Positions 251 through 20,760 of a stretch of 64,000 bases of DNA are shown piece by piece (the stretch's first letter is position 1; every line of letters begins with the position of its first letter). The translations under genes were made by a program, and so were the position numbers. The notes under the pieces are model-generated. The model was given only the letters and a program-made list of their open reading frames with translations. It was not told where the DNA came from and did no database searches. The DNA lies in NCBI GenBank assembly GCA_023434145.1, contig JAEYTI010000365.1, positions 1,001-65,000 on the forward strand, given 5' to 3'. This stretch comes from Chloroflexota bacterium (lineage in GTDB: Bacteria > Chloroflexota > Anaerolineae > Anaerolineales > Anaerolineaceae).

Positions 251-3200
251 ATGCCTGCTTCTTACTACCGTAATGAGACCCTCTTTTCCGAAATCTACCT
301 TGAAGAAATCACCCGCCAACCAGAACAGGAAGATGTCTTAGCATCGCTGAGTGTTATGCGCGAGTACCGAGAATACGCGGACACCAGTAGCCTAGACACC
401 TGGAAAGAAAAATATATTCATGAAGTGATTTCGGCTTTGGGATTCAATGCGCAGGCAGCAGGCAAGCATATCACCCGTCTCTATCCGCTTGGAAGCACCG
501 AACCGCTTGTCTCACTGTGTTTTGTGGTGGATGCGAAAGAGAGCCTGGATAACACCTTGATGGGCAGGAACTGGATGGAGAAAACCATCCGGGCGCTGCG
601 CGAGCACGGCCTTTCCTGGGGACTGTTGACCAACGGCAAGCAGTGGCGCATTCTGCACCAGGAAGAACCTACACCATTTGAGACGTATCTGGAGATCGAT
701 CTAGAGGAAATTCTACACAACAAAGCGAAAGAATCTTATCAGATCTTCCATAAGTTTCTAAAGGCTCAAAATTTTCTGGCACAAGGTGATGGGAAATGTC
801 AGTTTGACCGTTTTAAGAAAGAGTCAAAGGACAAGATCGACTATATTGAAAAAGAGCTGGCAAACGCGCTCAAACAGCGTGAAGAGGGCGGCAAAGGTGT
901 ACTCTCCGATCTTTGCATGGGGTATGTTGAGGAATTGCGAAGAAGAAACGAAGTCAATTGGGAGGATGAAAAACTTCGTAGAAAAATTTATCATGGCGCA
1001 ATGCTTTATATGTTTCGACTGCTCTTCCTCTTTTACGCCGATGCGCGTCATCTGCTCAGCAATGACAACCACACTTTGCTTGCAAAGGTGATTAAGAGCA
1101 GCCAAGACGTTCGGCAGTCAGGGCTAGGATCACCAAATGCAATGGGCTTGTGGGAAACCCTGGAAACGATCTTTGTAGATATTGACCAGACCTACAACGG
1201 CGGACTTTTTAGTCCGCAGGAAAGCGAATTTACTCGCTTCCTTTCGGACACTCGCATTAGCAATTCCTATCTGTCCAACGTGCTATATACCTTAACAACG
1301 TACCGAGAGAAGAATGGACAGGAAAAGCCAATCAGCTACCGCGACATGAGCGTACGCCACCTGGGCACACTCTACGAAGGACTCCTGGAACATAAGTTGT
1401 TTATTGCCAGTGAGGATACAGAGGTTAAGGTTACAAAAGGGAAAATCCAGTTCACTCCATCCTCAAAAGGCGGCAAGTTAGTAAAGGGACATTACATAAG
1501 GGCTGGAGAGGTTTATTTTTCTGGAGATCCCAGCGAGCGGAAATCTACCGGCTCGTATTACACTCCCGAATATATCGTAGATTATATTGTGCTCAATACA
1601 GTGGGCGAGAAGCTCAAGGAACTCAAAGCAGCTTTTTTGAAAGAGCAGCGTCCAACTTTAGAATCCTACCAGCATGCATTGGACAAAGACGAGCGTGCTG
1701 CTTTGGGTTTGCTGTTGGAAGAGAACGTGCTAACATACATTCGCCAGAGGGTACTTACACTCTCGGTGCTTGACCCAGCGATGGGCAGCGGGCATTTTTT
1801 AGTGAACGCTACCAACATCATTGCAAACTTTATCACCCAGATTCTCAATGAATTGGAGATCGAAACCAGCCTTGAAAGCAGCACAGCGCAATGGCGGCGA
1901 TGGGTGGTGGAAAATTGCATTTATGGAGTGGATCTCAATCCACTTGCGGTGGAGCTCGCAAAGCTCTCACTGTGGATTCTTTCAATGGCGAAGAACCAGC
2001 CGCTTTCTTTCTTAAATCACAACCTGAAATGTGGAAACAGCCTGGTGGGTGCACGACTAGAAGAAATCGGTAATTTTCCCTTCTCTACCGCAAAAAAAGA
2101 ACCTCGCCAGCTTAACTTCTTCGAACGCGACCCAGACTTCAAAACTGCGGTGGAAGAGGTGATCGCCACAAGCCGGCTGATCACGGGGAAAGCATCAGCC
2201 AGCCTGGAAGATGTGCATACCAAGAAAGCATGGCTTGAGGAGATCGATCAACGCCTTGCAGGGTATAAAGCCATCTGCGACGTGCATAGCAGCCTGTACT
2301 TTGACAATCTAGTGGATGAAGTTACTTACCAGCGGATGGTCAAAGAAAAGAATTTTGGGCTAGCGCATTCGCTGGTAATTCCCAATTCTTATTTTCATTG
2401 GGAATTGGAATTTCCTGAAATCTGCCTCTCGCGAGGCGGTTTCACCTGCATTACCTGCAATCCGCCATATGATACCTTTAGAGAAAACATTTATTTTCGA
2501 AAAGAGCCTGCCGCCGGTTGTGGGAATTTGTTTGGGCACTTCATAACGAAGGCGGTAGATTTAAACCAATCATTCGGATCAATCGGTTTCATTGTCCCAT
2601 TATCCTTTGCCTGTGGTTCCAGTTACGAAACTGTCCGTCAAGAGGTTTACAAGAACTTCCACTCCCTATACGCAAGCCATTATTCTATTAGGCCTAATTC
2701 ATTGTTCGAGGATGTTGCACAACGAATAACGATATTTGTTGCGCATGAAAAAGAATCCACATCCACATGTCAGTTATTTTCCTCTAAGTTATGGCGCTGG
2801 AAAAAGGAGGACCAGGAAAAAGTGGTTTATTTTCCAGGGCTAGCTTATGTAGACCGCATTTATAAGGGCGTTATTCCAAAGGTGGGGTCTGAAACTGGGG
2901 CTGAAATTTATAGAAAAATTAAAAAGGCACCTTTAAATTTAGACCGTCTAATTTCCAACGATTCGAACAGCAATAATTCAGCTTATTTTCATAATATTGC
3001 TCGTTACTGGATCAAAGCCTACACTTTTTTGCCCTACTTCAAGCGCGAAAAGGATCCAACTCCATCGTCATCAACAGGAGTGAGAGAATTCGTTTTCAAA
3101 GATCAATTCGATAAGAATTTATTTGTCTTGTTCATTAACTCATCTATCTTTTATTACTGGTGGATTTCACACAGTGATGAATTTCATGTACTGGTTTCAG

Positions 3201-3493
3201 AAATCAGTGGTTTCGGAATTAATGGGTATGAGACTTTCCGTCAAAATCAGGAAATGGTGGTTTTATTAGTAAAGGAGTTGATGGACGACTATCAAAAGAA
3301 CTCGGCCATCAAAAGTACTGCGTTGGGCGGTTCAATCGCCCATTATCAGGAATTTTATCCGCGCAAAAGCAGGGATATCATCAATCGTATTGATGACTTC
3401 ATAGCTCCAATATATGGTCTTTCAGAAGAGCAAAACCACTTCCTAAAAGAATACGATCTAGTTTGGCGTACCGATGAGGAAAAAGGGGAATGA
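251..3493 (+). CDS. pglX: BREX type 1 N6-adenine DNA methyltransferase PglX (BrxX)
   Basis: 1080 aa. Motif I LDPAMGSGHFLV precedes motif IV CNPPYD (gamma-class N6A MTase order). Long N- and C-terminal extensions. Gene order is pglX-pglZ-brxL. Confidence 0.9.
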   Translation: MPASYYRNETLFSEIYLEEITRQPEQEDVLASLSVMREYREYADTSSLDTWKEKYIHEVISALGFNAQAAGKHITRLYPLGSTEPLVSLCFVVDAKESLDNTLMGRNWMEKTIRALREHGLSWGLLTNGKQWRILHQEEPTPFETYLEIDLEEILHNKAKESYQIFHKFLKAQNFLAQGDGKCQFDRFKKESKDKIDYIEKELANALKQREEGGKGVLSDLCMGYVEELRRRNEVNWEDEKLRRKIYHGAMLYMFRLLFLFYADARHLLSNDNHTLLAKVIKSSQDVRQSGLGSPNAMGLWETLETIFVDIDQTYNGGLFSPQESEFTRFLSDTRISNSYLSNVLYTLTTYREKNGQEKPISYRDMSVRHLGTLYEGLLEHKLFIASEDTEVKVTKGKIQFTPSSKGGKLVKGHYIRAGEVYFSGDPSERKSTGSYYTPEYIVDYIVLNTVGEKLKELKAAFLKEQRPTLESYQHALDKDERAALGLLLEENVLTYIRQRVLTLSVLDPAMGSGHFLVNATNIIANFITQILNELEIETSLESSTAQWRRWVVENCIYGVDLNPLAVELAKLSLWILSMAKNQPLSFLNHNLKCGNSLVGARLEEIGNFPFSTAKKEPRQLNFFERDPDFKTAVEEVIATSRLITGKASASLEDVHTKKAWLEEIDQRLAGYKAICDVHSSLYFDNLVDEVTYQRMVKEKNFGLAHSLVIPNSYFHWELEFPEICLSRGGFTCITCNPPYDTFRENIYFRKEPAAGCGNLFGHFITKAVDLNQSFGSIGFIVPLSFACGSSYETVRQEVYKNFHSLYASHYSIRPNSLFEDVAQRITIFVAHEKESTSTCQLFSSKLWRWKKEDQEKVVYFPGLAYVDRIYKGVIPKVGSETGAEIYRKIKKAPLNLDRLISNDSNSNNSAYFHNIARYWIKAYTFLPYFKREKDPTPSSSTGVREFVFKDQFDKNLFVLFINSSIFYYWWISHSDEFHVLVSEISGFGINGYETFRQNQEMVVLLVKELMDDYQKNSAIKSTALGGSIAHYQEFYPRKSRDIINRIDDFIAPIYGLSEEQNHFLKEYDLVWRTDEEKGE

Positions 3494-5835
3494 TTAAGAT
3501 TATTTATGACCCTCAGAATTTGATCTCTGTTAAGGAGAGCAAGGTTCAGGAAATCGGTGAATACCCGCAGGTCGTCAAGACCTGTTTGGACAGCGTGCGA
3601 GATGGCACAAGTAAGACAATCGTTTTGGTAGAGCCTGTATTGCTGCAATGGTTCAGGAACATGTCCGCTCGCTACTCTCAAGGATTATTTGTCTTTGAAA
3701 CGCTTGACGCGCGCGCTGCGCTAGCACAGCGCTGGAACGTATTAATCCCTGAGAGTGTGACGAATGAGGATATCCTTACCAATGAATTGCTTTCATTAGA
3801 TATCCACTCTCAACCGGGTTTTAATTTTGATGACACCGTCCTAAGTTATTACTATTCTGAAATCTTCACAAGTAAATCCTTTCCCTTCCCTCATATTTCA
3901 ATACTGCTTACCACCGTGTCAGAAGAAGATTGGCGCCGAAACCGAACCAATCATCTTCTTTCTCGTTCGTTTAATAATCGAGTTGAGGAATGGAAGAAGA
4001 AAGCAAACACATTTGAGCAGCGGCAGTTGATAGACCTGTTTTCATCTGACCCGGTTGTACTGAAACATTTGCTTATGGAGTATCGTGTTTTACGAAGTTA
4101 TCCAGCGCTGGGAGAGGCACTACTTGGAAGCAGTTTCTCCCTATTTAAAACATTGAAACTATCACTGGATGATTTATCGATAGAAGAATCCAAAATACCA
4201 GATGCGCGGTTGCAGGTGAGTTATCATCTAAATAATATTCAGCCACAGGCCGATAAGGATATTGAAACACTTATCAGCGATGTAAGCGGTTTACTCACTG
4301 GTGAATTTGATACGCTAGAAAAGCATCTTCTCACACATCCAGAATGGATATCGACAGGACTTCTGGATCAACTAGAAAGCAAGTTTGCTTCCCATTCGCG
4401 CCGTTACGGGAGACGAATTAAGGCACTACGTTCCCAAATCCGCCCAGTAAAACCTGAACTTCCTGACATGGCTTGGAAAGCTGAAACGATGTTGGAATGG
4501 GCGACACAGCAATATTTGCCATACCAGGCATGGTGCAGCGCGAAGGAGTATTTTGTTCCAGATCTCTATTCGACTGGCGACCGCTTTTCAGAGTGGCTCA
4601 TCTCGCACTGGTCAGACCTGCACGCAAATTCCACCCGCTTCGTCTTCAACATCCTTGCCAATAAGGCCGCAGATCTCAAGCAAGCCGGTCGGGTAAACCT
4701 GGTTCTGGTGATCGATAATTTGGGCTGGTCGTATTCTGAAATTGTCCGCGGATTGTTCGAGGAGCGGGGATATTTCCTCACCGGCGCTGAACCCTACCTG
4801 GCTATGCTGCCAAGTGAGACGGAAATTTCCAAGAAATGCCTGCTGTCTGGGGCGGTGGGTTACAACGCGATCGATGATAAAACCTATAAAAGCATCATCG
4901 AGAAAGGCTGGGTCCCCTATTTCAATAACAGCGCATTTCGCTATGTCAGCGATATTGGCAGTTTAGGGAAAATTGAAACAATCGATGCTGCTACCTACGT
5001 TGTAAACTATCTAGCGGTCGATAAGGCCTTGCATAAATCGGCTGATGAGATTGGCATGCCACACACCGAACATGTCGCCCATCTGCTCTCGCATCTGGTT
5101 GATAATGTCATTGCCTTTATCGACAAGCATGCTCTTCAAGATAAGATCCGCATTCACGTGGTTTCGGATCACGGTTCCACCCGGATACCCGCGACCATTC
5201 AAAACGATCTGGACCCCAATTTCTTCAAGGCGAGTGGTTTCGAAGCTCGCTCACACCGGTTTGTAGAGGTCAGCGACGACAAATTTGTCAGCCTGGCGGA
5301 TAATTTGAAACTCGACTGCTTTTTCTTGCCAGCGCATGAGTTTATGAACCCCAAGAACGTCTTATGCGCCCGGCGAGCAAATCGCTTCCTTCCGACTGAC
5401 CAGAGCAATTATGTGCATGGCGGTCTGCTTCCAGAAGAAGTAATCGTTCCCTATATGGCCTTTGAACCCGTCACCGTTCCCATTCAGGATGTTACAGTCC
5501 TGTTCAAGAAGAACCTGTTCCGGTATCGCATGGAAACAGTCGAGTTGGAAGTCGGTAATCCAAACGACTCCGCAGTGGAACAGGTTCAGGTGATTTTGCT
5601 CAACGGCAATGTGGAAAGCGAACCATTTACGATTCCGCTGCTCAACAGCAAATCGAAGGTGCCTGTTCAGATTCCAGCCAGGTTTAAACTAACATCGCTG
5701 CCTGAGGAACAAAACACCCTGCGCCTGCGCGTTCGCTTCCGCGCTCGTGGAGAGATACATACCACCGATGCACAAGCAAATATCGTTATGCGGAAGCTGG
5801 TAGAAGAGAAAAGCTCGGGCCTGTTTGAGGATTAG
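3490..5835 (+). CDS. pglZ: BREX PglZ-domain (alkaline-phosphatase superfamily) protein
   Basis: 781 aa. The blocks LVLVIDNLGWSY, HVVSDHGSTRI and YVHGGLLPEEVIVP are typical of PglZ. 4-nt overlap with the pglX stop. Confidence 0.85.
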   Translation: MIKIIYDPQNLISVKESKVQEIGEYPQVVKTCLDSVRDGTSKTIVLVEPVLLQWFRNMSARYSQGLFVFETLDARAALAQRWNVLIPESVTNEDILTNELLSLDIHSQPGFNFDDTVLSYYYSEIFTSKSFPFPHISILLTTVSEEDWRRNRTNHLLSRSFNNRVEEWKKKANTFEQRQLIDLFSSDPVVLKHLLMEYRVLRSYPALGEALLGSSFSLFKTLKLSLDDLSIEESKIPDARLQVSYHLNNIQPQADKDIETLISDVSGLLTGEFDTLEKHLLTHPEWISTGLLDQLESKFASHSRRYGRRIKALRSQIRPVKPELPDMAWKAETMLEWATQQYLPYQAWCSAKEYFVPDLYSTGDRFSEWLISHWSDLHANSTRFVFNILANKAADLKQAGRVNLVLVIDNLGWSYSEIVRGLFEERGYFLTGAEPYLAMLPSETEISKKCLLSGAVGYNAIDDKTYKSIIEKGWVPYFNNSAFRYVSDIGSLGKIETIDAATYVVNYLAVDKALHKSADEIGMPHTEHVAHLLSHLVDNVIAFIDKHALQDKIRIHVVSDHGSTRIPATIQNDLDPNFFKASGFEARSHRFVEVSDDKFVSLADNLKLDCFFLPAHEFMNPKNVLCARRANRFLPTDQSNYVHGGLLPEEVIVPYMAFEPVTVPIQDVTVLFKKNLFRYRMETVELEVGNPNDSAVEQVQVILLNGNVESEPFTIPLLNSKSKVPVQIPARFKLTSLPEEQNTLRLRVRFRARGEIHTTDAQANIVMRKLVEEKSSGLFED

Positions 5836-5844
5836 GAGCCAATT

Positions 5845-7926
5845 ATGGAAACGTTCGAACAAAAAGCGCTGGATATCTTTAGCGAGATTGTTATCAATAA
5901 ATCCTTTGTGCACAAAGCAGGCTTTGGCAGCAGGGCGATTCCCACCTATGTGAGGGAATGGATTATTTCTCACTACCTGGATGAAGCCACGGAATTGTCT
6001 GATACATCGCGGGATAAGATCGCCCGTTTTGTCCAGAAGTACGTTCCGGACAAAAGCCAGAAGGAAGCCATCAAGAACCAACTGTTCGAACAGATGGAAG
6101 TAAATCTGCTGGATAACTTCTCGGTATACGTCAACCTGGCTAAAGGCGACCGCTATCTGAACATTCCGTTCCTGGATGAGGATGCCGCTTTCGCTACCCC
6201 TCAGATCATTCAGGAAAATGAAATGCTGCTGAGCAGCGGGTTATGGGGCGTTGGCACGCTTTATTACGTCCCAAAGAGCGAAGACAATCCTCGAGGTCAG
6301 GTGTGGATGCGCGAGTTCCGTCCATTCCAACTGGCCAACATGGATCTGGATTACTTCCGCGAGTGCAGGAAGAGCTTTTCGACCCAGGAATGGATCGATT
6401 TTCTTGTCGCTTCAATGGGTTTCAACCATCATCTCTACACCGAGCGCCAGAAAATACTGTTGATCAGCCGGTTGATTCCGATGGTTGAGCCGCGATATAA
6501 CCTGGTTGAGTTAGCCCCAAAAGGAACCGGGAAAAGCTTTGTGTTCGAGAATATGTCACGTTATGTGGCAGTTCGCTCAGGGAATGTCTCGCCCGCTGTG
6601 CTGTTTTTTAACGACTCACGAAAAACACCTGGACTAATAACCCGGTATGACAGCGTTGTAATCGATGAAGCCCAAAAAGTAAAAGCTGACTCATCTGGTG
6701 AACTCACTGCCCTATTAAAGTCTTACCTCGAGGCCGGTCGGTTTGCACGCGGCAGCGCCAGCTCGATCCAGGCAGAAGCGGGACTGGTTATCCTGGCAAA
6801 TATCGAATTGGATCACAACCGGCGGCCAATTCACGACCAAATTGGCCTCTTCAGGATCTTCCCGAATTTCCTGCGTGAAACGGCCTTCATCGATCGCTTC
6901 TCCGGCCTGCTTCCCGGCTGGGATCTGCCCAGGGTTAGCAAGGAAACACCCTCGAAGTCGATCGGCTTGAAAGGCGACATCTTTGGCGAGATCCTGCACT
7001 CACTGCGCAGCGATATTAGCTACCGCGACTATGTTAAAACAAGCCTTGAACTGTCTAACGCAGATGACATGCGTGATAACAAGGCCATCGAAGCAGGCGC
7101 CACGGGGCTGCTTAAGATCCTATTCCCGGATAAAGATCCCTCTGAAGAGGAGTTCTACCGCTACTGCGTCAACCCCGCACTCGAGCTGCGCCAGCGGGTG
7201 CGTGACGAATTGTGCAAGTTGGATCGGGAATACGCTCCAGCTACCTTCCTTTCAAAGTTCCCAGATGAATTCCAACGAACACATCGGATCCCAATTTATG
7301 CAGATCCGGACAAGTTTGATCTGTCGACTCCAGATGAAGTAGAAGCGCCAGTTATTCAACCAAAAGACGAAGAAGAGGAAGAAGTCTTACGGTACTTTGG
7401 CGCAACTGGAGAAACGAAATCGCCCCAAGAAGCCCAGATGGAGCTTACCCCCAAAACAATCCAGATACATGAGGGGGACACAGGCTGCAGTTACCAGGTG
7501 CTATTTGGCCCCTATTTGAAGGGCGCTACCATCGTTCAGGTGGTTGATCCTTACGTCCGCCTGGAATATCAGATCAAGAACTTTATTTCATTTATCGGTG
7601 TACTGGATACTTCGGCTGGTCCAGTCCAGTTGCAGCTAAAAACCTCTGCCGAGGATGCCTATCAGGAGAAGATCCTGGAGCAGAAATTCTCAGAGATTGC
7701 GGCTGGTCTAGCCCAGCACAATATTACGTTTACCTTTGAATTCGATCCAAACATCCACGACCGTAGCATTCGCCTCAATAATGGATGGTGTATCTACCCT
7801 GGCCGTGGTCTAGATATTTACCAAAAAGCCGAGTCAAAGTACGAGCTGAGCGAGATTGATCAAACAAAGCGCAAGTGTCGCGAGACCGAAATAATCTTCA
7901 TAAAGAGCAGCGAGAGCGGCCAGTAA
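5845..7926 (+). CDS. brxL: BREX Lon-like/AAA+ protein BrxL
   Basis: 693 aa. N-terminal ..RAIPTYVREWIISHYL.., Walker A LAPKGTGKSF, Walker B VVIDEAQKV. Terminal position after pglZ. Confidence 0.85.
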   Translation: METFEQKALDIFSEIVINKSFVHKAGFGSRAIPTYVREWIISHYLDEATELSDTSRDKIARFVQKYVPDKSQKEAIKNQLFEQMEVNLLDNFSVYVNLAKGDRYLNIPFLDEDAAFATPQIIQENEMLLSSGLWGVGTLYYVPKSEDNPRGQVWMREFRPFQLANMDLDYFRECRKSFSTQEWIDFLVASMGFNHHLYTERQKILLISRLIPMVEPRYNLVELAPKGTGKSFVFENMSRYVAVRSGNVSPAVLFFNDSRKTPGLITRYDSVVIDEAQKVKADSSGELTALLKSYLEAGRFARGSASSIQAEAGLVILANIELDHNRRPIHDQIGLFRIFPNFLRETAFIDRFSGLLPGWDLPRVSKETPSKSIGLKGDIFGEILHSLRSDISYRDYVKTSLELSNADDMRDNKAIEAGATGLLKILFPDKDPSEEEFYRYCVNPALELRQRVRDELCKLDREYAPATFLSKFPDEFQRTHRIPIYADPDKFDLSTPDEVEAPVIQPKDEEEEEVLRYFGATGETKSPQEAQMELTPKTIQIHEGDTGCSYQVLFGPYLKGATIVQVVDPYVRLEYQIKNFISFIGVLDTSAGPVQLQLKTSAEDAYQEKILEQKFSEIAAGLAQHNITFTFEFDPNIHDRSIRLNNGWCIYPGRGLDIYQKAESKYELSEIDQTKRKCRETEIIFIKSSESGQ

Positions 7927-7937
7927 CGGAGGTCCAA

Positions 7938-8972
7938 ATGGGGAATCAGGAACTAATCCAGGACACAGGTCTGTTCGTTGGGCAGAAACTGTTCGAGTTT
8001 TCTTTGAGCGAGTCGTTTGATTCCATTGTCAATCTACTCCAAACGATTAAAGAGTATCGGGATTTCGCTTCTCCGGATGAGGCTGCATGGTATGACTATG
8101 TCCATCAAGTATTCCAGTTATTTGGATTTAACACGAAGAAAGTTGCTCAACGACTGATCGCATTGCAAGAAATGGGATCAAGTGGGGATCCTAAAGCGCT
8201 GGTTTGTATTATTGGCCCAAATGAAAACTTCCACCAGATCGCTTTTGGACTGGATTGGGAGTCCTACTTGTTTTATGCCGCCAGGTACCATCAGGTTGAA
8301 TGGGTAATCCTGACGAATGGGTTGCAGTTCAAGGTACTCAACTTTGCAGAGGATGAGGATAAGCAAAAGTACTTCAAGTGTGAACTCGATGAGATTATCA
8401 AGCATGGAAAAACGGATAATTTCTTTACCCTTTATAAAGTTTTCTCTGTAATCAACAATCACAAGGAAAATAGTGAGGCGAGCCCTAAGGCCGATGGCAA
8501 AGAACCTGATAATAAAGGTAAAAGAGTACTAAGTGAACGCCATTATCAGCGGAAAGAATTCTGGAACCAGTTGATTTCGCGTTCACAAAAGAAAACCACA
8601 TTGTTTTCTAAAACTCCGCCGGGAGTAGAGAATTACCTAAGTACAGGTGCAGGAAAAACTGGCATCTTTTATAACTACGTTATCAATTACGATGGAGCTC
8701 GCATTCAGTTATATATCGATAACGGAAACGGAGAATGGAACAAAAACATCTTTGATTCCCTTCTCCAAAGTAAAGACGAAATTGAGAAAGCCTATGGAGA
8801 AGCCCTTGTTTGGGAAAGATTAGAAGATAACCGTGCGAGCATTGTCAGATTCTATATCAACCACTATGGCCTTCAACAAAAAGATAACTGGTCCAATTTA
8901 CAGGATCTGATGATTGATACGATGATCAAGTTTGATCAGGCTTTTCGACCTTTCATTCAAGCGATCAAGTAG
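7938..8972 (+). CDS. PglX-N-terminal-domain paralogue 1 with a DUF4268-like C-terminal domain (344 aa)
   Basis: Start moved to MGNQ.. (GGAGG 5 nt upstream); the track start at 7875 would overlap brxL. The N-domain aligns without gaps to PglX residues ~1-175 (TIKEYRDF, LFGFNTKK, WVILTNG, DNFFTLYKVF). The C-terminus (RKEFWNQL..STGAGKTGIFYNY..LYIDNG..WERLED) looks like DUF4268. Confidence 0.8.
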   Translation: MGNQELIQDTGLFVGQKLFEFSLSESFDSIVNLLQTIKEYRDFASPDEAAWYDYVHQVFQLFGFNTKKVAQRLIALQEMGSSGDPKALVCIIGPNENFHQIAFGLDWESYLFYAARYHQVEWVILTNGLQFKVLNFAEDEDKQKYFKCELDEIIKHGKTDNFFTLYKVFSVINNHKENSEASPKADGKEPDNKGKRVLSERHYQRKEFWNQLISRSQKKTTLFSKTPPGVENYLSTGAGKTGIFYNYVINYDGARIQLYIDNGNGEWNKNIFDSLLQSKDEIEKAYGEALVWERLEDNRASIVRFYINHYGLQQKDNWSNLQDLMIDTMIKFDQAFRPFIQAIK

Positions 8973-9004
8973 TGTGATTGGGTAACCAACGAAGAGGTTT
9001 ATAA

Positions 9005-9934
9005 ATGGTTGAGCAACAATTTATTGTTGACCGAGGTTTGTTTTCTGGAAAAACATTAAGTTTTCCAATGAAAGAATCGTATGACATGGTGCAAAACATA
9101 CTCCGAACGATAAAGGAGTACCGTGATTATGCTTATCCCGGTTCGCCTTCATGGGAGGAATATATTCTAGAACTCTTCCACCTTATGGGGTTTGATACTA
9201 AAAAACTAAACCAGCGCACCATCCTTTTAGGAAGTCTAGGAACGAGGGATGCAGATAAAGCAATTGCCGGGATTGCGATGCCTGGTGAGAGTCTTGATGC
9301 CATAACTCCCTGGCTGGACTGGGCAACCTTCCTTTCCTATCCTGCAAAAATCCATAACGTGGAGTGGGGAATCCTAACGGATGGCAAGAACATCAAAATT
9401 ATTCAATTTTCTCGAAAAGATTACGGTGAGAATTACTTCCATGTAAACCTGGAGGCAATAATTCAAGGAGAACGACTGGATAGTTTCTTTATTTTGTTCA
9501 AAGTCTTTTTGCATATAAAGGGTCAACCATTTTTAGCAGCGACGACAAAAGTACATCAGCCAGAACCTATTCGATCAACACCTCCAAAAACCTCGCCGCC
9601 TCTTCCTTCAACTGCTAATGCAGTAAACAAGATTCAACCACCACCGAAAACAATTGAAAAAACCAAACTTCCGGGAGCGTTAGAAAATATTTTTGAAGTT
9701 ATAAAAGAGATGCTTTCGACCAGACATGTATTTGATCAAGTGTGTGAGGATGTAGCAAGAAGGAGAGGCGTTACAGTAACGACCATTAGGATATCCTGCA
9801 CTAGGCAAATTTTTCTAAAACCGGAAGCATTCACCAAATTGCTTGAGGATAAAACAAAACTGGTAACGTATCTTCACCAAAGGTTCCCGGGTTTTAAACC
9901 GGAAGTAACGAAAGTAATCGAGCAATATTATTAA
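9005..9934 (+). CDS. PglX-N-terminal-domain paralogue 2 with a Pro-rich linker and a small helical (HTH-like?) C-terminal domain (309 aa)
   Basis: GAAGAGG RBS. N-domain blocks TIKEYRDY, LMGFDTKK, WGILTDG, DSFFILFKVF. Linker PEPIRSTPPKTSPPLPST. The C-terminal ~90 aa are unassigned. Confidence 0.75.
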   Translation: MVEQQFIVDRGLFSGKTLSFPMKESYDMVQNILRTIKEYRDYAYPGSPSWEEYILELFHLMGFDTKKLNQRTILLGSLGTRDADKAIAGIAMPGESLDAITPWLDWATFLSYPAKIHNVEWGILTDGKNIKIIQFSRKDYGENYFHVNLEAIIQGERLDSFFILFKVFLHIKGQPFLAATTKVHQPEPIRSTPPKTSPPLPSTANAVNKIQPPPKTIEKTKLPGALENIFEVIKEMLSTRHVFDQVCEDVARRRGVTVTTIRISCTRQIFLKPEAFTKLLEDKTKLVTYLHQRFPGFKPEVTKVIEQYY

Positions 9935-9998
9935 CCACCAGAGAAAGATTTCTTCGTTTTTTGGATAGAGATCTTCTGAATCGATTAAGGAGAAGAGC

Positions 9999-11372
9999 AT
10001 GGCAACCTGGGTTGAGGATATAGAACAAGCATTAAAAAACCTAGGGGGGCAGGCAACACTAAGCCAAATATATGAGGAGGTCAAACGTATCAGGAAAGAT
10101 CCTTTGCCTGCCACATGGAAAGCGAGTATACGAGAAAGGATAGAGGCACATTCATCAGATTCTCAGAACTTTAAGGGGAAAGATATTTTTAGGAAAGTAG
10201 ATAAAGGAATCTGGGCGCTAAAAGATCGAAATTCAGGCCATGTTGGTTCTGAAGAAAAAGTCAATACACTTTCGAGTACCTCTATTGCTGAAGTTGTTCT
10301 TCCACAAACACAAGAAGATACTAATAAAAAAGTTCCATTAGTAACTCCTAAACTATGGGGAGAAGTCAAGGACAGTAAGAGACAAGAGTTTGTAATTGAT
10401 AATGGCCTTTTTCCCTCCGAAAGTCTTAATTTCCCCTTTTCGGAATCATTCGATACTGTAGCAAACCTATCTAGAACGATTAAAGAATATCGTGACTATG
10501 TTCACCCTGATGCCAATTCATGGGAAGAATATATTCTAGAATTCTTCCATATCCTCGGTTTCAATACGACAAAAGTAGCACCTCGCCTTATCACAGTTGA
10601 TATTCTTGGTGAAAATAGCAGCCCTAAAGCTTTGGTAGGAATCGTTCATCAGGATGAAAGCCTCGACGAAATTATTCCCGGAATAGATTGGGCTTCTTTC
10701 CTATTTTTTGCTTCTAAGCATTTTCAGACCGAATATGGGATTCTAACGAATGGATGCGAACTTAGAATCTACAACTTGTCTCATAACCAGTTTAAAGAAA
10801 ACTCATTTTGGTGTAATCTGGATGGATTAATCAAGCACGAGAGAACAGATAGCTTTTTCACTGTTCATAAGGTTTTTGAGTATATAAAAGGTCGAAGATT
10901 TAAAACCGTTGAGACTGAGGAGACATTGTCTGATAGTAATGCGCTCCGTCGTGTGTTTTGGACCCAATTGTTAGAAAAAGCAAAAAGTCGAACTTCACTT
11001 CATCAGAACCGAACACCGGGAACAGATAATTGGATCAGCACCGGGGCAGGAAAAGCAGGCATCGTTTATAGTTATGTTGTTCGCATGGAAGATGCTCAGG
11101 TGGATCTTTATATTGATAGAGCGGACTATAAATGGAATAAGGGTGTATTTGGGTACTTCCTACAGAACAAAGAAGAGATTGAAGAAATCTTCGGTGAGAG
11201 ATTAGAATGGCAAATGCTTGAAGACAAAAGGGCTGCCAGAGTTCGGTTTGTGATTAATGGATTAGGCCTGAAGAATCAATTGTTGTGGCCTGAACTCCAA
11301 GAGAGATTAATAAATGCAATGGTTGATTTGGAAAAAGCATTCAACCCATTTATTCGAAAACTGAAAATATAA
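9999..11372 (+). CDS. PglX-N-terminal-domain paralogue 3 with an extra N-terminal winged-helix (Mrr_N/HARE-like) and a DUF4268-like C-terminus (457 aa)
   Basis: AAGGAG RBS. N-terminus ATWVEDIEQALKNLGGQATLSQIYEEV..GIWALKD. Central blocks TIKEYRDY, ILGFNTTK, YGILTNG, DSFFTVHKVF. The C-terminus is clearly paralogous to that of paralogue 1 (FWTQL..STGAGKAGIVYSY..LYIDRA..WQMLED). Confidence 0.8.
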   Translation: MATWVEDIEQALKNLGGQATLSQIYEEVKRIRKDPLPATWKASIRERIEAHSSDSQNFKGKDIFRKVDKGIWALKDRNSGHVGSEEKVNTLSSTSIAEVVLPQTQEDTNKKVPLVTPKLWGEVKDSKRQEFVIDNGLFPSESLNFPFSESFDTVANLSRTIKEYRDYVHPDANSWEEYILEFFHILGFNTTKVAPRLITVDILGENSSPKALVGIVHQDESLDEIIPGIDWASFLFFASKHFQTEYGILTNGCELRIYNLSHNQFKENSFWCNLDGLIKHERTDSFFTVHKVFEYIKGRRFKTVETEETLSDSNALRRVFWTQLLEKAKSRTSLHQNRTPGTDNWISTGAGKAGIVYSYVVRMEDAQVDLYIDRADYKWNKGVFGYFLQNKEEIEEIFGERLEWQMLEDKRAARVRFVINGLGLKNQLLWPELQERLINAMVDLEKAFNPFIRKLKI

Positions 11373-11462
11373 AATCACAACACAAATAGACAAACTTTAT
11401 CCAAGTAACAATTGAATAAGATCCTAACCAGATGATTATGCTTTCTCTAATAGGAGCAATAT

Positions 11463-12377
11463 ATGAGCAACCAAGAGTTTATCATCGATAATGGGCTTTT
11501 TCCATCGAAAGCGCTCAATTTTACTCTTTCCGAATCATATGAAACAATTGCTAATACCCTAAAAACGCTGAAAGAGTATCGGGGTTTCTCACAACCAGGT
11601 GAATCCTCATGGGATGAGTACATTGAAGAGATATTTCACGTGCTTGGTTTTGGTACTAAGAAACTTGATTCAAGGTTATTGGCTCTAAATGTAATCGGAG
11701 AGCTTGATTCAAAAAAAGCACTAATGGGCATAGTACACCCAGGTGAAAATATGACATTAATTATTCCAGACCTTGAGTGGGATACTTTACTTTTTTATGC
11801 CGCAAATTATTGGAAAGTGTATTGGGGAATCTTGACAAATGGCTTGGAAATAAAAATTGGAGATTTTGCTACGCAGGAAAGGCATAGAAAGTATTATTGG
11901 TGTAACTTGGAAGCGATCATTGAAGAAGAACGAGTAGACAGCTTTTTCAACCTATATAAAGTATTCGCTGTAATAAAAGGCCAAAAAGAAGAACCAAAAA
12001 TAATCACGAAACCACTTTCAAGGGGCACTTCCACAATCAAACCTCAAAGAACAAATGGAAATAGTATTTTGTTAGTAATTACCCAGGGTGCACTTACGCA
12101 TAGTTACATGAATGTGGCATCCAATTTAAGTTTCTTTCCAACTGATTCTATTGGTGCTTCAAGTGCAAAATATGGATTAGGTAAAATGTTAAAGCTTCAT
12201 GTGGATGGGCTTTCTTTACCAATTGAAACAGACATCGCAGGAGATAAAAAATTCTTCCGTGAAAGAGGATGGTGCGCAGACTTTTATCGCGTACATGCTT
12301 TGCAGCCAGGAGATGAGGTTTTGATAGAACGACTATCCGAGTACGAATATCGAGTTTCTCCAGGGAAGAAAGCATGA
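11463..12377 (+). CDS. PglX-N-terminal-domain paralogue 4 with a beta-rich C-terminal domain resembling a B3/EcoRII-N-type DNA-binding pseudobarrel (304 aa)
   Basis: AGGAG RBS. N-domain blocks TLKEYRGF, VLGFGTKK, WGILTNG, DSFFNLYKVF. The C-terminus ..RERGWCADFYRVHALQPGDEVLIERLSEYEYRV is assigned by pattern only. Confidence 0.7.
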   Translation: MSNQEFIIDNGLFPSKALNFTLSESYETIANTLKTLKEYRGFSQPGESSWDEYIEEIFHVLGFGTKKLDSRLLALNVIGELDSKKALMGIVHPGENMTLIIPDLEWDTLLFYAANYWKVYWGILTNGLEIKIGDFATQERHRKYYWCNLEAIIEEERVDSFFNLYKVFAVIKGQKEEPKIITKPLSRGTSTIKPQRTNGNSILLVITQGALTHSYMNVASNLSFFPTDSIGASSAKYGLGKMLKLHVDGLSLPIETDIAGDKKFFRERGWCADFYRVHALQPGDEVLIERLSEYEYRVSPGKKA

Positions 12378-12400
12378 GCTGCTCACCCTTATAAAAGATT

Positions 12401-12430
12401 ATAGGCCTTGGACAAACCAAGGCCTATTTT
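12401..12430. terminator. Bidirectional intrinsic terminator between convergent genes
   Basis: Perfect 11-bp stem ATAGGCCTTGG / CCAAGGCCTAT with a 5-nt loop. TTTT follows on the + strand and CTTTT on the - strand. It lies between the stops at 12377 (+) and 12433 (-). Confidence 0.75.
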
Positions 12431-12432
12431 AA

Positions 12433-15400
12433 TTAGATTCCTAACCCCATCTGTCCTTCTGGTAGCACCTCCTTTCTCATTGTTTTCCGTACAACTACTG
12501 TCTTTTTTGTCACCCAGTCATTCCAAGTCAGTGCTTTCGGATCAGGCATGATTGTCGCGCTCGGCATCGTCAGACTGCCCATGGGATTGTGACTCATGTG
12601 TAGATCATCGGCAAACATGGCTTGTAAATCCGGCAATTCCGCTTCTTTCAGCACTTCGCGTGCCAATTCGGTCAACAAATCCCCATCTTCTTCGGGTACG
12701 ATTGCGCCGCCAACTTCATCGCCGTACAATGTCTGCGCCGCTCGCATCTTCCGACCCATCAAGGCCAGCGCTCGGGCTTCCATCGTGCCTTCATAAACGG
12801 AGAATAGCGCCTTGACCGGCTTGGTCTGCCCTAGCCGCCATACCCTTCGGACAGCCTGCCATAAACAGTAGAGCGAGTACTCCGTCTCGAAGAAGATCAC
12901 CGTGGAGAATTGGACGAGATCGAGCCCGGTTTCGACGAGCTTGGGGTTGCAGACCAGCACGTCGGTGTGCGCTACGCGATTGGCGATCCATTCCTCACGC
13001 CGGCGAGGATCAACTCCGCTGCTGAGCACAGCCGTCCGAAGCCCTGCTTCTTTGAGCGGCTCGACCACCCGGTCTTGTATATCTCTTGTCCCAGTCTGGC
13101 GCACGTAGACCAAAACCTTGCGCCCCTGCCACTTTTCATTACGGCAGAAGTCGGCCAGCCAGCCTTCTTTGGGCAGCCATTTCGGGTTGCTGTTGACCAC
13201 CGGCGGAAGCACCATCAGCGGCACTTTGCGCACGACCTTGCCTTTCTCGTCTTTGGCCTCGTCGATCATGACCGTTTCCTCGCGGAAGGCGGAGTTGGGG
13301 CGGGCCAGCGACCATTGCAGCCAAGTGGACAGGTAGCGGTTGGATTGCAGCGCCATGGATTTGAGCGTGCTTTCCATCTGTTGGTATTGGCTGGACTGTT
13401 CCTCCAGCATCTCGAGCGTTGTCACCTCCTCATTGTAGGCCGGCAGCGCCAGTCCCAGGTCTTTGAGACTCAAGAATATGGTCGTATCCAGCAGCCGGTT
13501 GATGATTGCTGGGCTAATGCCGGGCTGCTCTTTGGCATTGTTGCGATAGCGCCGGTTGCCGGTGAACACGCCATCTTCGTCTGCGTCATCCCGCCGGCGC
13601 TTGCGTTTCGTTTCCAGCACGCCGTATAACCTGGCCCAGCGCAGTTCTTCGTTGAAGGCGAAGTCCCGGCGCACTCCGGCATTCAGCCGGTGCAGCAACC
13701 AGAAAATCGAAGTAGACTTTCCGCCGAAGAACGTGCCGGTGAGTGTCAGTGTGCTTTTGCAGGCGGTTACGAGCTGGTGGAAGGCGATACCTCGGTCCGA
13801 GGACTTCCCTTTAAACTGGTGGAGCTCATCGGATACGAGAATGTGAAATCGCCCCGACGCTTTCTTGGCGATGTACTCTGCAATCGCCTCCCGCCGGACG
13901 GTGGTGAAGTCAAATAGCGGTGTCTTGCAAAGCCTGGTCCCCCAGATCGGGTTGCCGTCACCGTCCAGCTTGCGCGTGCCATCCGGGTTGAGCTGCCAGC
14001 CGGGAACCATCGCGCGACAGAAGTGTCGCTTTTTCGCCAGCTGCTCCAGATCGGTCACCGGCACGATCACACCATTTTCCTCCGTCTCGATCAACGTTCC
14101 GCATGTCGGGCAGGCGTACGCCCAGATGCGGTGGCCGGTCAGCGGATCAACCGTGCGTTTTTGCATCGCGGCTGGCTTCCAGCCCGCGCCGAACTTGGCG
14201 GCGGTATTCGCCACCACCGCGACCGCTTTCTTGCCGCTTCGCCCGGCGTCGTAGTCCTCCAGGAAGGCGCGGACATCGTTGATATCCCCTGGATCTTCGG
14301 CATTCCGGCCAATCCGCCGGATTTCACGCGCATGCACGCCTGGGATCACCTCTTCCACCTCGCGGATCCACTTGGGAACCAGGTGCGGCGGGCAGATGAT
14401 CAGGGCGGGATAGGCGTTGAGCAGGTCGATCACGGCAGACGCCACCGTGGTTTTCCCGGACCCCATTTCCGCTTGGCAGTTGGCCACGCCGTGCTTGCGA
14501 ATACAGCGCGCCAGCGCCGCGGCGGCATGGCGTTGGGTGGGGAGCAGTCCGGGGCGATCTTGTCCGGGGAGGGGCTTGCGTTCTTGTCCCAGGCGGTCAA
14601 GCACCTGGACCTCTTGTGGGGTGGGGTCAAAGTTGTAGAGCGGGCGGTACGTTTTCATCACATGGGCGGCGATCTTCTCACCGTAGGCTTTCATGAACGG
14701 CACCAGCCCCTGGATATCCTGGATCACCTCGATCTTGTCCTGCTTCAGCACCGCCACGGTTGTCACAAAGCGGTCGCGGTAGGTCTCAGTGACCTCCTCG
14801 CCCTTACCCTCTTCACCAACCTTCTCCACCTTTTTGACCACCCGGCCTTTGATCAGCATCGGCCGGCCCTCTTCGTCGGTCAGCCGGACGGTTCCCATCA
14901 TGCCAGAAGCCATGAGCATCGCCACGTGGCCTTTCTTCAGCGGCATGACCGGTTGGGTCAGCTCCGCTCGGTTGTGATCGGGCTGGATCAGGTCCAGCCA
15001 TTCCTTGGTGCGCTGGAAGCCATGTTCGAGGGTTGCTTCGACCACGTCTTCAGCTTCCCAGTCGGTGCGCTTGAAGATCACCGGCCGGCCATCGAGGCCG
15101 CGCTCGGGTGCGGGTAGCAGATGATAAACAGGTTCGCTCAGCGGTGCGATTGGATCCAGCTCCATCTTGGCCCAGGCTTGCACTGCTTCGATCTCAGCCT
15201 CGGTTGGAATGGTGTAGCTCTTGCGCCGGTAGCCCAGCACCACCACCTGCTTGAACTTCTCAAACAGGCCATCCGGGAAGCGCCCCACGGTCAGGCATTC
15301 GTACTGCCCAGCCAAGATGCGCGCCACCTGCACAAGACCTAGGATGTGCTGTGGGACGATATAAATTAACAGCCCCCCGCGAACCAGTTTAGATGTGGTT

Positions 15401-15750
15401 GAGCTGAGAAACTCTAGCTCGACGCGCTTGTGGTCATCTGAGGACTCATAGGGTGGATTAAGGAACAGAAGTGAGATGGATTCGTTGGAAAGAAAGCAGG
15501 CTTGCCAGGGAGCCTGAAAGACGCGGTCCATCTTCTGGCCGGCTGTGGCTGCACGAGCGGGAGATAGTTCCACGCCCCAGGTTGCGCAGTTCATCGCGCG
15601 GCCCAGTTTGGCTGCGGCAATGCCTTCCCCGGCGCAGGGATCGAACAGGCGGGCTTTCTCAGAGGCGGGTGCGATATAGGTGGTGAGGATGTCGATAACG
15701 GGTTCGTCGGTTGGGTAGTAACCCAGTTTTTCTACGGCTGGCGGTCTCAT
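12433..15750 (-). CDS. Fusion of an N6-adenine DNA methyltransferase and an SNF2/DExH helicase (DarB-like, 1105 aa)
   Basis: Start moved to MRPPAVEK (AAGGAGAG RBS). MTase motifs are LFDPCAGEGI and LLFLNPPYES. Helicase motifs are AEMGSGKTTVA, VSDELHQFKG and QAVRRVWRLGQTKPV. A Cys4 cluster (CPTCG..C) lies between the lobes. Confidence 0.85.
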   Translation of the reverse strand: MRPPAVEKLGYYPTDEPVIDILTTYIAPASEKARLFDPCAGEGIAAAKLGRAMNCATWGVELSPARAATAGQKMDRVFQAPWQACFLSNESISLLFLNPPYESSDDHKRVELEFLSSTTSKLVRGGLLIYIVPQHILGLVQVARILAGQYECLTVGRFPDGLFEKFKQVVVLGYRRKSYTIPTEAEIEAVQAWAKMELDPIAPLSEPVYHLLPAPERGLDGRPVIFKRTDWEAEDVVEATLEHGFQRTKEWLDLIQPDHNRAELTQPVMPLKKGHVAMLMASGMMGTVRLTDEEGRPMLIKGRVVKKVEKVGEEGKGEEVTETYRDRFVTTVAVLKQDKIEVIQDIQGLVPFMKAYGEKIAAHVMKTYRPLYNFDPTPQEVQVLDRLGQERKPLPGQDRPGLLPTQRHAAAALARCIRKHGVANCQAEMGSGKTTVASAVIDLLNAYPALIICPPHLVPKWIREVEEVIPGVHAREIRRIGRNAEDPGDINDVRAFLEDYDAGRSGKKAVAVVANTAAKFGAGWKPAAMQKRTVDPLTGHRIWAYACPTCGTLIETEENGVIVPVTDLEQLAKKRHFCRAMVPGWQLNPDGTRKLDGDGNPIWGTRLCKTPLFDFTTVRREAIAEYIAKKASGRFHILVSDELHQFKGKSSDRGIAFHQLVTACKSTLTLTGTFFGGKSTSIFWLLHRLNAGVRRDFAFNEELRWARLYGVLETKRKRRRDDADEDGVFTGNRRYRNNAKEQPGISPAIINRLLDTTIFLSLKDLGLALPAYNEEVTTLEMLEEQSSQYQQMESTLKSMALQSNRYLSTWLQWSLARPNSAFREETVMIDEAKDEKGKVVRKVPLMVLPPVVNSNPKWLPKEGWLADFCRNEKWQGRKVLVYVRQTGTRDIQDRVVEPLKEAGLRTAVLSSGVDPRRREEWIANRVAHTDVLVCNPKLVETGLDLVQFSTVIFFETEYSLYCLWQAVRRVWRLGQTKPVKALFSVYEGTMEARALALMGRKMRAAQTLYGDEVGGAIVPEEDGDLLTELAREVLKEAELPDLQAMFADDLHMSHNPMGSLTMPSATIMPDPKALTWNDWVTKKTVVVRKTMRKEVLPEGQMGLGI

Positions 15751-15865
15751 AGGTCTCTCCTTGTGAAAAGGTGATGCCCGATGAGACGCGCAGCACCCCA
15801 ACGGGGACGCGCCCCATCGGGGGAATAGTGAGTTGTGTCATTGGTGAATTACAGGGGGGGTGTGT

Positions 15866-20040: not shown

Positions 20041-20760
20041 TTATGAAAAGCCCAGGCCGCGTTCTTTGAGGCTGACCCAGTTGGGGTTGCCGATGATCAG
20101 GTGATCGAGCACCGAGATATCCAACAGCTTGCCGGATTGGACCATGGCGCGGGTGATGGCCACGTCTTCCGGGCTGGGATCCGGATCGCCGGAGGGATGG
20201 TTGTGCGCGATCACGATGGCCGCCCCATTTTGCTGGATGGCGGGTTTGAACACTTCCGCGATGCGCACGGCGGCCGAGTTGAGGCTGCCGTGATACACCT
20301 CGGTAATCTCCAGCACCCGGTGGCGGGTGTCGCAGGTGATCACCAGCAAATATTCTTGCTGGCGATACGCCATGCGCGGCACGAAAATCTCCGCCGCTGA
20401 AGAAGGGCTGTTGACCAGCGGGCGTTCATCCTCCGGTTCGAGCAGCTTGCGCCCGATCGCTAAGGAGGCTTTCAGGCGCAGCGCGGTTTGTGAGCCGACG
20501 CCTTTGACCGAAGCGATCTCGTTGACGTGCGCGCCGGCTAACTTGTGGAGCGTACCGAAACGGAAGAGCAGGCGCTCGGCGGTTTCAATTTGCTCGCTGC
20601 CGCCGATGATCACGGCCAAGAGCTCGGCTAAGTTGCAAGCATCAGCGCCAGTTGCCACCCGGTAAGCTGGTTTTTCGCGGATGGGGAGGGCTTTGACTTT
20701 CGGGGTGGAATAAGGGGTGAGTGGAGTGGTGAAGAGCGTAGGTGGGAGTGGATCGGTCAT
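20041..20760 (-). CDS. radC: RadC-like JAB/MPN domain protein
   Basis: 239 aa. HhH-like N-terminal half (..EIASVKGVGSQTALRLKA..) and the JAMM motif HNHPSGDPDPSPED. Confidence 0.85.
   Translation of the reverse strand: MTDPLPPTLFTTPLTPYSTPKVKALPIREKPAYRVATGADACNLAELLAVIIGGSEQIETAERLLFRFGTLHKLAGAHVNEIASVKGVGSQTALRLKASLAIGRKLLEPEDERPLVNSPSSAAEIFVPRMAYRQQEYLLVITCDTRHRVLEITEVYHGSLNSAAVRIAEVFKPAIQQNGAAIVIAHNHPSGDPDPSPEDVAITRAMVQSGKLLDISVLDHLIIGNPNWVSLKERGLGFS

Follow-up and report, generated by a model that had tools for sequence, protein, structure and literature searches.

What might four tandem genes that directly follow brxL add to a bacteriophage exclusion (BREX) system? The question is raised by a 64,000-nucleotide stretch of DNA from a Chloroflexota bacterium (contig JAEYTI010000365.1, positions 1,001 to 65,000; hereafter the window), in which genes 1 to 4, coding for proteins of 344, 309, 457 and 304 amino acids, lie co-directionally on the + strand immediately 3' of brxL, with the overall span and shared direction as given in an earlier note made from the DNA sequence alone. 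We found that the four proteins share a domain of ~175 residues, here named NDOM, that this domain is homologous to the N-terminal domain of the PglX methyltransferase encoded in the same operon, and that it lacks the catalytic motifs of the restriction nuclease domains to which it appears to be related. It is joined to modules that differ from gene to gene, and genes of this family follow brxL in every locus that could be judged. The explanation that we favour, and to which we give somewhat less than an even chance, is that a divergent BREX variant uses the products of genes 1 to 4 as non-catalytic sensors or adaptors, which would dock through the pseudo-nuclease NDOM. The genes and the related part of PglX are located in the window as follows.

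251..3493, + strand: PglX-like N6-adenine methyltransferase, 1080 aa (Pfam Eco57I 2e-20, MmeI_Mtase 3e-10; PADLOC DrmMI, type IIG and PglX models)
about 280-760, + strand: NDOM-type, predicted inactivated MmeI/HsdR-like nuclease domain of PglX, residues ~10-170 (NDOM hidden Markov model: residues 23-170, E 8e-19)
7938..8972, + strand: gene 1, 344 aa; NDOM residues 1-176 (7938-8465), DUF4268 residues 205-339 (8550-8954)
9005..9934, + strand: gene 2, 309 aa; NDOM residues 1-175 (9005-9529), Pro-rich linker, helical domain residues ~221-309 (9665-9931)
9999..11372, + strand: gene 3, 457 aa; winged helix residues 1-79 (9999-10235), disordered linker, NDOM residues 127-299 (10377-10895), DUF4268 residues 316-451 (10944-11351)
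11463..12377, + strand: gene 4, 304 aa; NDOM residues 1-175 (11463-11987), orphan C-terminal region residues 177-304 (11991-12374)

The four NDOM copies are 43-51% identical to each other (BLASTP E 1e-49 to 1e-67), which bears out the previous claim of one shared domain of ~170 residues, and each copy can be aligned with residues ~1-175 of PglX at 23-28% identity (pairwise E 8e-20 to 2e-9). Homology to the N-domain of the cognate PglX, which had also been claimed, is evident when profiles are compared, as the stand-alone NDOM profile matches the PglX-type N-domain profile with an hhalign probability of 99.9% (E 5e-37) over 161 columns. This alignment is ungapped, as had been stated, whereas one or two short gaps are required when single copies are aligned with PglX. 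All of the conserved motif blocks listed in the earlier note were found in the proteins, the conserved Glu is separated from W/Y-x-x-LT(N/D)G by exactly 25 residues in all five proteins, and the paralogues indeed read IIGPNE, IAMPGE, IVHQDE and IVHPGE where PglX reads VVDAKE. The distance to PglX, given as 5 kb, needs correction, since the PglX N-domain is located about 7.2-7.7 kb upstream of gene 1. Searches with Pfam, PADLOC and NCBIfam revealed no methyltransferase domain in genes 1 to 4, and the N-domain is all they have in common with PglX. A search of 1.84e9 representative proteins with the four-copy NDOM profile gave 174 matches, about 125 of them stand-alone proteins of 250-600 aa (clusters at 50% identity) and about 11 of them PglX-like proteins of 1080-1200 aa, in which the domain is found at residues ~10-170 (E 1e-16 to 1e-9). 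NDOM is covered by no Pfam, NCBIfam or PADLOC model.

What kind of domain is this? When residues 1-420 of the window PglX are used as query, the close matches are PglX relatives from Chloroflexota and other metagenome-assembled genomes (MAGs), and the remoter ones (27-34% identity) carry Pfam MmeI_N, MmeI_hel or HSDR_N. These remote MmeI-like relatives show the canonical nuclease signature, consisting of PDY(A/G)(L/F)F, (D/E)AK, QxxxY, ILTNGxxWRLY and FYEVDLxxI. Canonical MmeI-like N-domains are matched by the PglX-type N-domains with an hhalign probability of 99.6% (E 1e-24) and by stand-alone NDOM with 98.1% (E 1e-13), and the profile-profile comparison that had been suggested is significant for both PglX-type and MmeI-like N-domains. 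In these alignments, NDOM is without the Asp of the PD motif, the (D/E)xK motif and the Gln of QxxxY, and ~40 surrounding residues are deleted. All three catalytic motifs are missing in genes 1 to 4 and across the about 125 family clusters, and no conserved Asp/Lys pair was found across the family, in agreement with the previous observation that the paralogues contain no (D/E)xK triad. Conservation is highest at aromatic or structural positions (R40, W50, Y53, G62, F63, W121, G127 and F161), and a P-x-E motif is also conserved. Residues 92-97 of the window PglX (VVDAKE) retain DAK where active MmeI-like relatives have (D/E)AK; most other PglX proteins of the clade read LLPxE at this position, and the window PglX is also without the PD Asp.

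Structure predictions point to the same fold, although the searches based on them carry limited weight. In the AlphaFold2 (AF2) models of genes 3 and 4, NDOM has a predicted local distance difference test score (pLDDT) >90 and the topology a-b-b-b-a-b-b. The best structural match of gene 3 in BFVD is A0A6J5NY69, which is annotated as an HsdR N-terminal domain (E 4.6e-4, prob 0.99, 375 columns), and the top Foldseek matches of the gene 4 model in the PDB, all of them weak (E at least 0.12), are EcoR124I HsdR, a tRNA-splicing endonuclease subunit, BpuSI and NucC. Pfam MmeI_N and HSDR_N_2 match below threshold (E about 0.07), and the PADLOC model for type IIG restriction endonuclease (REase)-methyltransferases matches residues 109-177 of gene 4 (4e-5). 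We conclude that NDOM is an inactivated MmeI/HsdR-type PD-(D/E)xK nuclease domain as present in type IIL enzymes, and that the free-standing and PglX-fused copies would share this derived, inactive state. A0A6J5NY69 is a 396-aa protein of an uncultured Caudovirales phage, and an architecture akin to NDOM-DUF4268 may exist in phages too.

NDOM resembles the N-domain of the MmeI-family type IIL/IIG enzymes (MmeI_N, HSDR_N, HSDR_N_2) in its fold and in the order of its motifs (LFS..YL, LGF, b-strands, (I/L)LTNG..W/F.(I/L) and (Y/F)..(V/L)DL..I). Unlike in these enzymes, PD, (D/E)xK and QxxxY have been lost, and in genes 1 to 4 the domain stands alone or is fused to a reader module, rather than to a methyltransferase. 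The N-terminal domain of the canonical type 1 BrxX/PglX protein is composed of one helix, a 3-stranded sheet and eight helices, has been described as having no structural homologues and 'no nuclease domain' (PMC11842806, PMC11341690), and was proposed to contact BrxC and BrxZ (PMC11842806). The NDOM of the window PglX is likewise a non-catalytic N-terminal domain of a BREX methyltransferase, but differs from the canonical one in that it is a recognisable dead nuclease with free-standing paralogues. The N-domain of the window PglX is not the helical domain of canonical type 1 systems, and appears to be a dead MmeI/HsdR-type domain that is found only in PglX proteins of the divergent variant.

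The modules joined to NDOM differ between the copies. DUF4268-like C-termini had been described for genes 1 and 3, and Pfam detects DUF4268 in both (E 6e-33 and 3e-32, respectively) and in neither gene 2 nor gene 4. The same two proteins are matched by PADLOC PDC-S11 models (gene 1, residues 181-343, E 1e-39; gene 3, E 7e-37). Three of the four PDC-S11 models align only with the DUF4268 half, from residue ~181 on, PDLC04912 begins at residue 140 of gene 1, in the tail of NDOM, and none of the four covers the nuclease core. All three domains of gene 3 are modelled by AF2 with pLDDT >90, and the N-terminus has the topology H-b-H-H-b-b. It is thus a winged helix by topology, as had been proposed, but its assignment as Mrr_N/HARE-like found no support: the N-terminus has no significant Pfam match (best Forkhead, E 0.028), a PDB profile search gave nothing meaningful, and a comparison with the Mrr_N segment of the family member P0005 resulted in an hhalign probability of 1.5%. 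Winged helix-turn-helix (wHTH) domains of the gene 3 type are present in 1-3 tandem copies in many family members. The Pro-rich linker and small helical domain reported for gene 2 could be recovered, and the ~90-aa helical domain is common to ~25-30 other family members (phmmer down to 1e-16) and has no Pfam or PDB match. For gene 4, a B3/EcoRII-N-like domain had been put forward. For its C-terminal 128 residues, a homologue was found neither in a search of 5.8e9 proteins nor in the family itself; the region has no Pfam match even at E 10 and an AF2 pLDDT <50, and we reject the B3/EcoRII-N pseudobarrel as unsupported.

The same variety is seen across the family: among 125 stand-alone members, Pfam identifies DUF4268 in 39, DUF5655 in 20, Mrr_N in five and DUF7662 in four proteins, and SAD_SRA, RAMA, GerE and HTH_24 in one each. 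Mrr_N, SRA and RAMA domains are typical of restriction enzymes, especially modification-dependent ones. This supports the view that the appendages are swappable DNA-reader-type modules, among which DUF4268 and the gene 2 and gene 4 domains would be putative binders of DNA or modified bases.

Are such genes a peculiarity of this contig? Further loci were gathered by exact-protein look-ups, by pattern scans of species-representative genomes (two loci, in Anaerolineaceae and Chloroflexia MAGs), by a metagenome scan (16 loci) and by look-ups seeded with PglX. In 20 of the 20 loci with visible upstream DNA (the window, which is L002, as well as L004-L007, L011-L018, L020, L022, L026, L027, the P0016 contig, L031 and L033), brxL of the same variant operon is followed by the NDOM genes at a distance of 0-150 nt, and the recurrent linkage that had been anticipated is therefore seen in every informative locus. 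This set spans L022, in which NDOM identity has dropped to 36%, and L031 and L033, which were seeded by PglX and not by NDOM. No NDOM gene was found in another context among the loci long enough to judge. Between one and four NDOM copies are present per locus; the P0016 contig holds another four-gene array, which is known from gene calls alone and in which DUF4268 genes follow brxL. Every complete array with scannable DNA encodes one or more NDOM-DUF4268 proteins, and the single-copy loci encode wHTH-wHTH-NDOM-DUF4268. Gene-1-type orthologues (77-80% identity) come first after brxL where the junction is visible, for example in L004, L006 and L007, and because they hold this place in other loci, the NDOM paralogues are old and not recent duplicates. 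In L026, L031, L032 and L033, the genes are in many pieces, with a transposase inside the system in L026; these are either decaying copies or long-read frameshift errors.

A copy number and a set of appendages that vary between loci, together with a domain in common with PglX, might also be expected of alternative methylation specificity subunits, which would retarget PglX to extra motifs in the way of the HsdS variants of type I systems. We consider this highly improbable. The long PglX-like relatives (1080-1200 aa) are already full-length MmeI/Eco57I-type enzymes, some of them with TaqI_C (for example on the P0016 contig), and DUF4268, SRA and Mrr_N are elsewhere linked to modified DNA and not to sequence motifs. 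In addition, the array contains no direct or inverted DNA repeats (positions 7800-12500) and no inversions that could serve shuffling; we rejected a swapping of modules by a shufflon or by recombination on the same grounds.

Within the window, the four genes are part of the following operon, of which the methyltransferase gene has been listed above.

3-227: BrxC/SspC-like large ATPase, last 74 codons, at the window start
3490..5835, + strand: divergent PglZ, 781 aa (PADLOC PglZ 7e-10; NCBIfam BREX-3 PglZ 2e-11, below cutoff)
5845..7926, + strand: BrxL, 693 aa (TIGR02688 444 bits vs cutoff 329; PADLOC BrxL 2e-134, full length; Pfam BrxL_N, BrxL_ATPase)
BrxL residues 547-686, + strand: C-terminal MIT_C/PLD-like (HKD) domain (Pfam MIT_C 4e-41), in place of the Lon protease domain
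12401..12427: bidirectional intrinsic-terminator-like hairpin, 11-bp stem with 6 GC pairs, T-runs on both strands

The intergenic gaps from the brxL stop (7926) through genes 1 to 4 are 11, 32, 64 and 90 nt, and a Shine-Dalgarno-like sequence precedes each of the four genes. The hairpin at 12401-12427, 3' of gene 4, is the sole strong terminator-like hairpin in the region 7700-12600, in which promoter-like sites are no commoner than in shuffled sequence. Due to the short gaps, the terminator-like hairpin after gene 4 and the lack of a promoter excess, genes 1 to 4 appear to be the last genes of the BREX operon, at its 3' end. The GC content is 38-41% for genes 1 to 4, ~45% for pglX and ~40-52% along the BREX core, and rises to 57-63% beyond 12.5 kb.

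The operon itself appears to encode a divergent BREX variant with the type-1-like gene order pglX-pglZ-brxL. It is called divergent because PglX and PglZ stay far below the NCBIfam cutoffs for BREX subtypes (PglX 83.9 bits for BREX-1 PglX vs 500; PglZ 42.8 vs 250), whereas BrxL passes its cutoff (444 vs 329). Upstream of the window, as seen on a longer contig of identical sequence (L002, 3256-9977), genes are found in the order HTH_17 (mad1-like), AbiTii-like, DUF4007/SspB-like, a 159-aa gene and a gene for a 1371-aa ATPase, which matches SspC better than BrxC. This set stands in for BrxA, BrxB and BrxC, with the DUF4007/SspB-like and 159-aa proteins in place of BrxA and BrxB. The gene order of the variant thus reads DUF4007/BrxA-like, p159, BrxC/SspC-like ATPase, PglX, PglZ and BrxL-HKD. 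A second order, namely PglX, DUF4007, p159, ATPase, PglZ and BrxL, was observed in L028, L030 and L032. In a recent survey of BREX systems, DUF4007 is read as a BrxA-like DNA-binding triad, and HKD nucleases are reported at the C-terminus of some BrxL proteins (PMC12839542), which fits the MIT_C/PLD-like C-terminus of the window BrxL. In L022 (6130-8136), the BrxL C-terminus is SLFN_AlbA_2, and the effector end of BrxL seems to be interchangeable in this variant.

How do the NDOM proteins compare with accessories that are already known from BREX loci? The closest is Madara, a recent name for the PADLOC candidate family PDC-S11, which combines an active NucS-like PD-(D/E)xK nuclease with a C-terminal domain proposed to sense modified cytosines and called EVE-like in the preprint; it restricts T4 phage with glucosylated hydroxymethylcytosine but not unmodified T4, the D63A substitution abolishes defence, and in E. 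coli ECOR34 it is located beside BREX, which it complements (bioRxiv 10.64898/2026.09.05.749240). We take its modification-sensing domain to correspond to the DUF4268 region. Madara shares with genes 1 and 3 the succession of a nuclease-fold N-domain and a C-terminal domain of the DUF4268 type, and both Madara and the NDOM genes are found next to BREX, where a proposed task of Madara is to recognise modified DNA and to deal with phages that evade BREX. On the other hand, the N-domain of Madara is active and NucS-like, whereas NDOM is of the inactivated MmeI/HsdR type and is without catalytic residues; Madara is a separate, divergently transcribed single gene, whereas the NDOM genes are operonic, occur in tandem (1-4) and are specific to one BREX variant; and the DUF4268 of Madara is absent from genes 2 and 4. 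BrxU, a GmrSD-family type IV partner of BREX, targets modified phage DNA (PMC8565348), and DUF4268 is also found fused to GmrSD type IV enzymes (PMC4619093). BrxU is thus, like the NDOM proteins, an accessory encoded with BREX whose GmrSD homologues can carry DUF4268, but it is an active ParB/HNH nuclease that depends on nucleoside triphosphates, works without BREX and has no homology to NDOM. What sets the NDOM proteins apart from both is the dead nuclease fold, the homology to the N-domain of the cognate PglX and the arrangement in tandem operonic genes within one BREX variant.

The earlier note had stated that no known BREX accessory has this architecture. This holds for the libraries and literature searched, with the qualification that genes 1 and 3 partly match PDC-S11/Madara through DUF4268. 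No description of the NDOM family was found in the same sources; in the BREX survey (PMC12839542), DUF4268, DUF5655 and HSDR_N are absent from the text and the examined supplements, and MmeI is absent from the text. The NDOM proteins look like an undescribed family of reader-type accessories linked to BREX.

The main competing explanation is that genes 1 to 4 provide a self-sufficient backup defence of the Madara or type IV kind, which is merely carried along by the BREX operon. Each protein would recognise modified phage DNA through its reader module and then act alone, either by a cryptic NDOM nuclease activity with non-canonical residues or by binding to the DNA and blocking it, and BREX proteins would not be needed. 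The matches of genes 1 and 3 to PDC-S11 speak for this explanation, as does the fact that Madara is a single-protein modification-dependent defence next to BREX and BrxU/GmrSD another type IV partner of it (PMC8565348). PD-(D/E)xK REases, some of them fused to HARE-HTH, are moreover reported to be the commonest auxiliary effectors beside BREX (PMC12839542), and the phage protein with the HsdR_N annotation aligns structurally with gene 3 over 375 columns. Nevertheless, we think this unlikely, although it deserves to be taken seriously. All three catalytic motifs are missing from NDOM and no Asp/Lys is conserved, whereas in Madara the mutation of one catalytic Asp is sufficient to abolish defence; the PDC-S11 models leave the nuclease core uncovered, and three of the four reach the DUF4268 half only. 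The profile match of NDOM is also far stronger with the cognate PglX N-domain (E 5e-37) than with nucleases that are active (E 1e-13). Finally, a system that works independently should turn up in changing contexts, and the NDOM genes were never found away from brxL of this variant (20/20 loci).

The winged-helix, GerE and HTH_24 modules of the family bring a further possibility into play, namely that the proteins are regulators, decoys or guards, which compete with PglX for a partner and thereby restrain BREX and limit autoimmunity, act as bait for phage inhibitors of the PglX N-domain, or regulate transcription of the operon. BREX regulators such as BrxR are typically encoded upstream, whereas genes 1 to 4 come last in the operon, in tight coupling with brxL, and the system already has an upstream HTH_17 gene. 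For BREX-related helicases, it has been proposed that REase domains without activity serve to decoy phage inhibitors (PMC12839542), and old, divergent paralogues (43-51% identity) would fit the target of an arms race. However, the commonest appendage, found in every scanned array, is DUF4268 and not the helix-turn-helix of a classical regulator, and up to four paralogues with differing readers are hard to fit to a simple repressor. Taken together, we regard this explanation as improbable.

We return to the explanation in which the four proteins serve BREX as non-catalytic sensors or adaptors. A sensor function has been put forward for inactive REase domains of BREX-related proteins (PMC12839542). 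The homology, the loss of the catalytic motifs, the modular build and the linkage to the operon are shown by the data, whereas docking, the reading of modified DNA and a dependence on BREX are inferred. In our model, NDOM would be an assembly module, which either pairs with the N-domain of PglX, much as type IIL nuclease domains are believed to pair when they cleave, or occupies the site that this N-domain uses on the BREX core. The variable modules, that is DUF4268, the winged helices, the gene 2 helical domain and the gene 4 orphan region, and in other members DUF5655, Mrr_N, SRA and RAMA, would read the incoming DNA, probably its modified bases, and several paralogues per cell would provide several interchangeable sensors. 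These sensors could in turn direct or license PglZ and BrxL-HKD against DNA that lies beyond the methylation-based discrimination of PglX; because the genes are so tightly coupled to brxL, they are more likely to take part in restriction than in methylation. One might go further and speculate that the whole variant is a modular multi-sensor machine, in which NDOM is the common plug on PglX and its paralogues and the readers trigger the effectors on modified or unusual phage DNA. We put this forward as a tentative idea that may well prove wrong; if true, BREX could recognise foreign DNA independently of its methylation status.

Several observations count against the sensor and adaptor model. 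Foldseek searches of the gene 3 and gene 4 models against the PDB gave no match at E 1e-3 or better, and PDB sequence-profile searches with the 4-copy and 136-member alignments gave no meaningful match. With the whole gene 3 model, the PDB matches of ~140 columns (prob 0.97-0.99) resemble YbjN and the type III secretion chaperones ExsC, Spa15 and SpcU, which is not an obvious DNA-reader fold. In addition, L028, L030 and L032, which have the other gene order, end before the DNA 3' of brxL, so that the presence of NDOM genes is not visible there. Systems that work independently, among them BrxU, PARIS and Madara, are also frequent in BREX loci, and adjacency alone is no proof of integration. The YbjN/chaperone-like matches probably fall on DUF4268 (gene 3 residues ~310-455, window ~10926-11363), and the remaining Foldseek list of gene 3 is dominated by spurious multi-domain alignments.

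Beyond the operon, a convergent gene for a 1122-aa DUF6094 methyltransferase fused to an SNF2/DEAD-type helicase (12433-15801, - strand; GC ~57-63% in 1-kb windows) abuts the terminator. We rejected it as a component of the system, as its GC content is host-like and it was not met again beside the system outside the closest relatives (L015-L017, L020), and take it to be a syntenic neighbour. Further along, a DnaN paralogue (17906-19021), RadC (20041-20760), Rad52/SWIM (22600-23706) and a DDE transposase (24954-26108) are encoded between 17906 and 26108, which suggests a mobile genetic element beside the defence island.

How BREX recognises and arrests phage DNA, and what the non-catalytic N-terminal domain of its methyltransferase contributes, are still unresolved questions. 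Here, one and the same domain forms part of PglX and of as many as four separate proteins, which bear modules tied elsewhere to the reading of modified DNA and whose genes would always be co-transcribed with brxL. On the most conservative reading, the NDOM proteins are a new BREX-specific accessory family of about 125 clusters, which current defence-annotation resources have missed or labelled only in part. If NDOM is indeed a docking module, it would provide a directly testable protein-protein interface of BREX and a further case in which the nuclease domain of a restriction enzyme has been put to non-catalytic use. It would also mean that BREX can be extended by plug-in sensors, and would tie BREX mechanistically to type IV-like (Madara/DUF4268) recognition.

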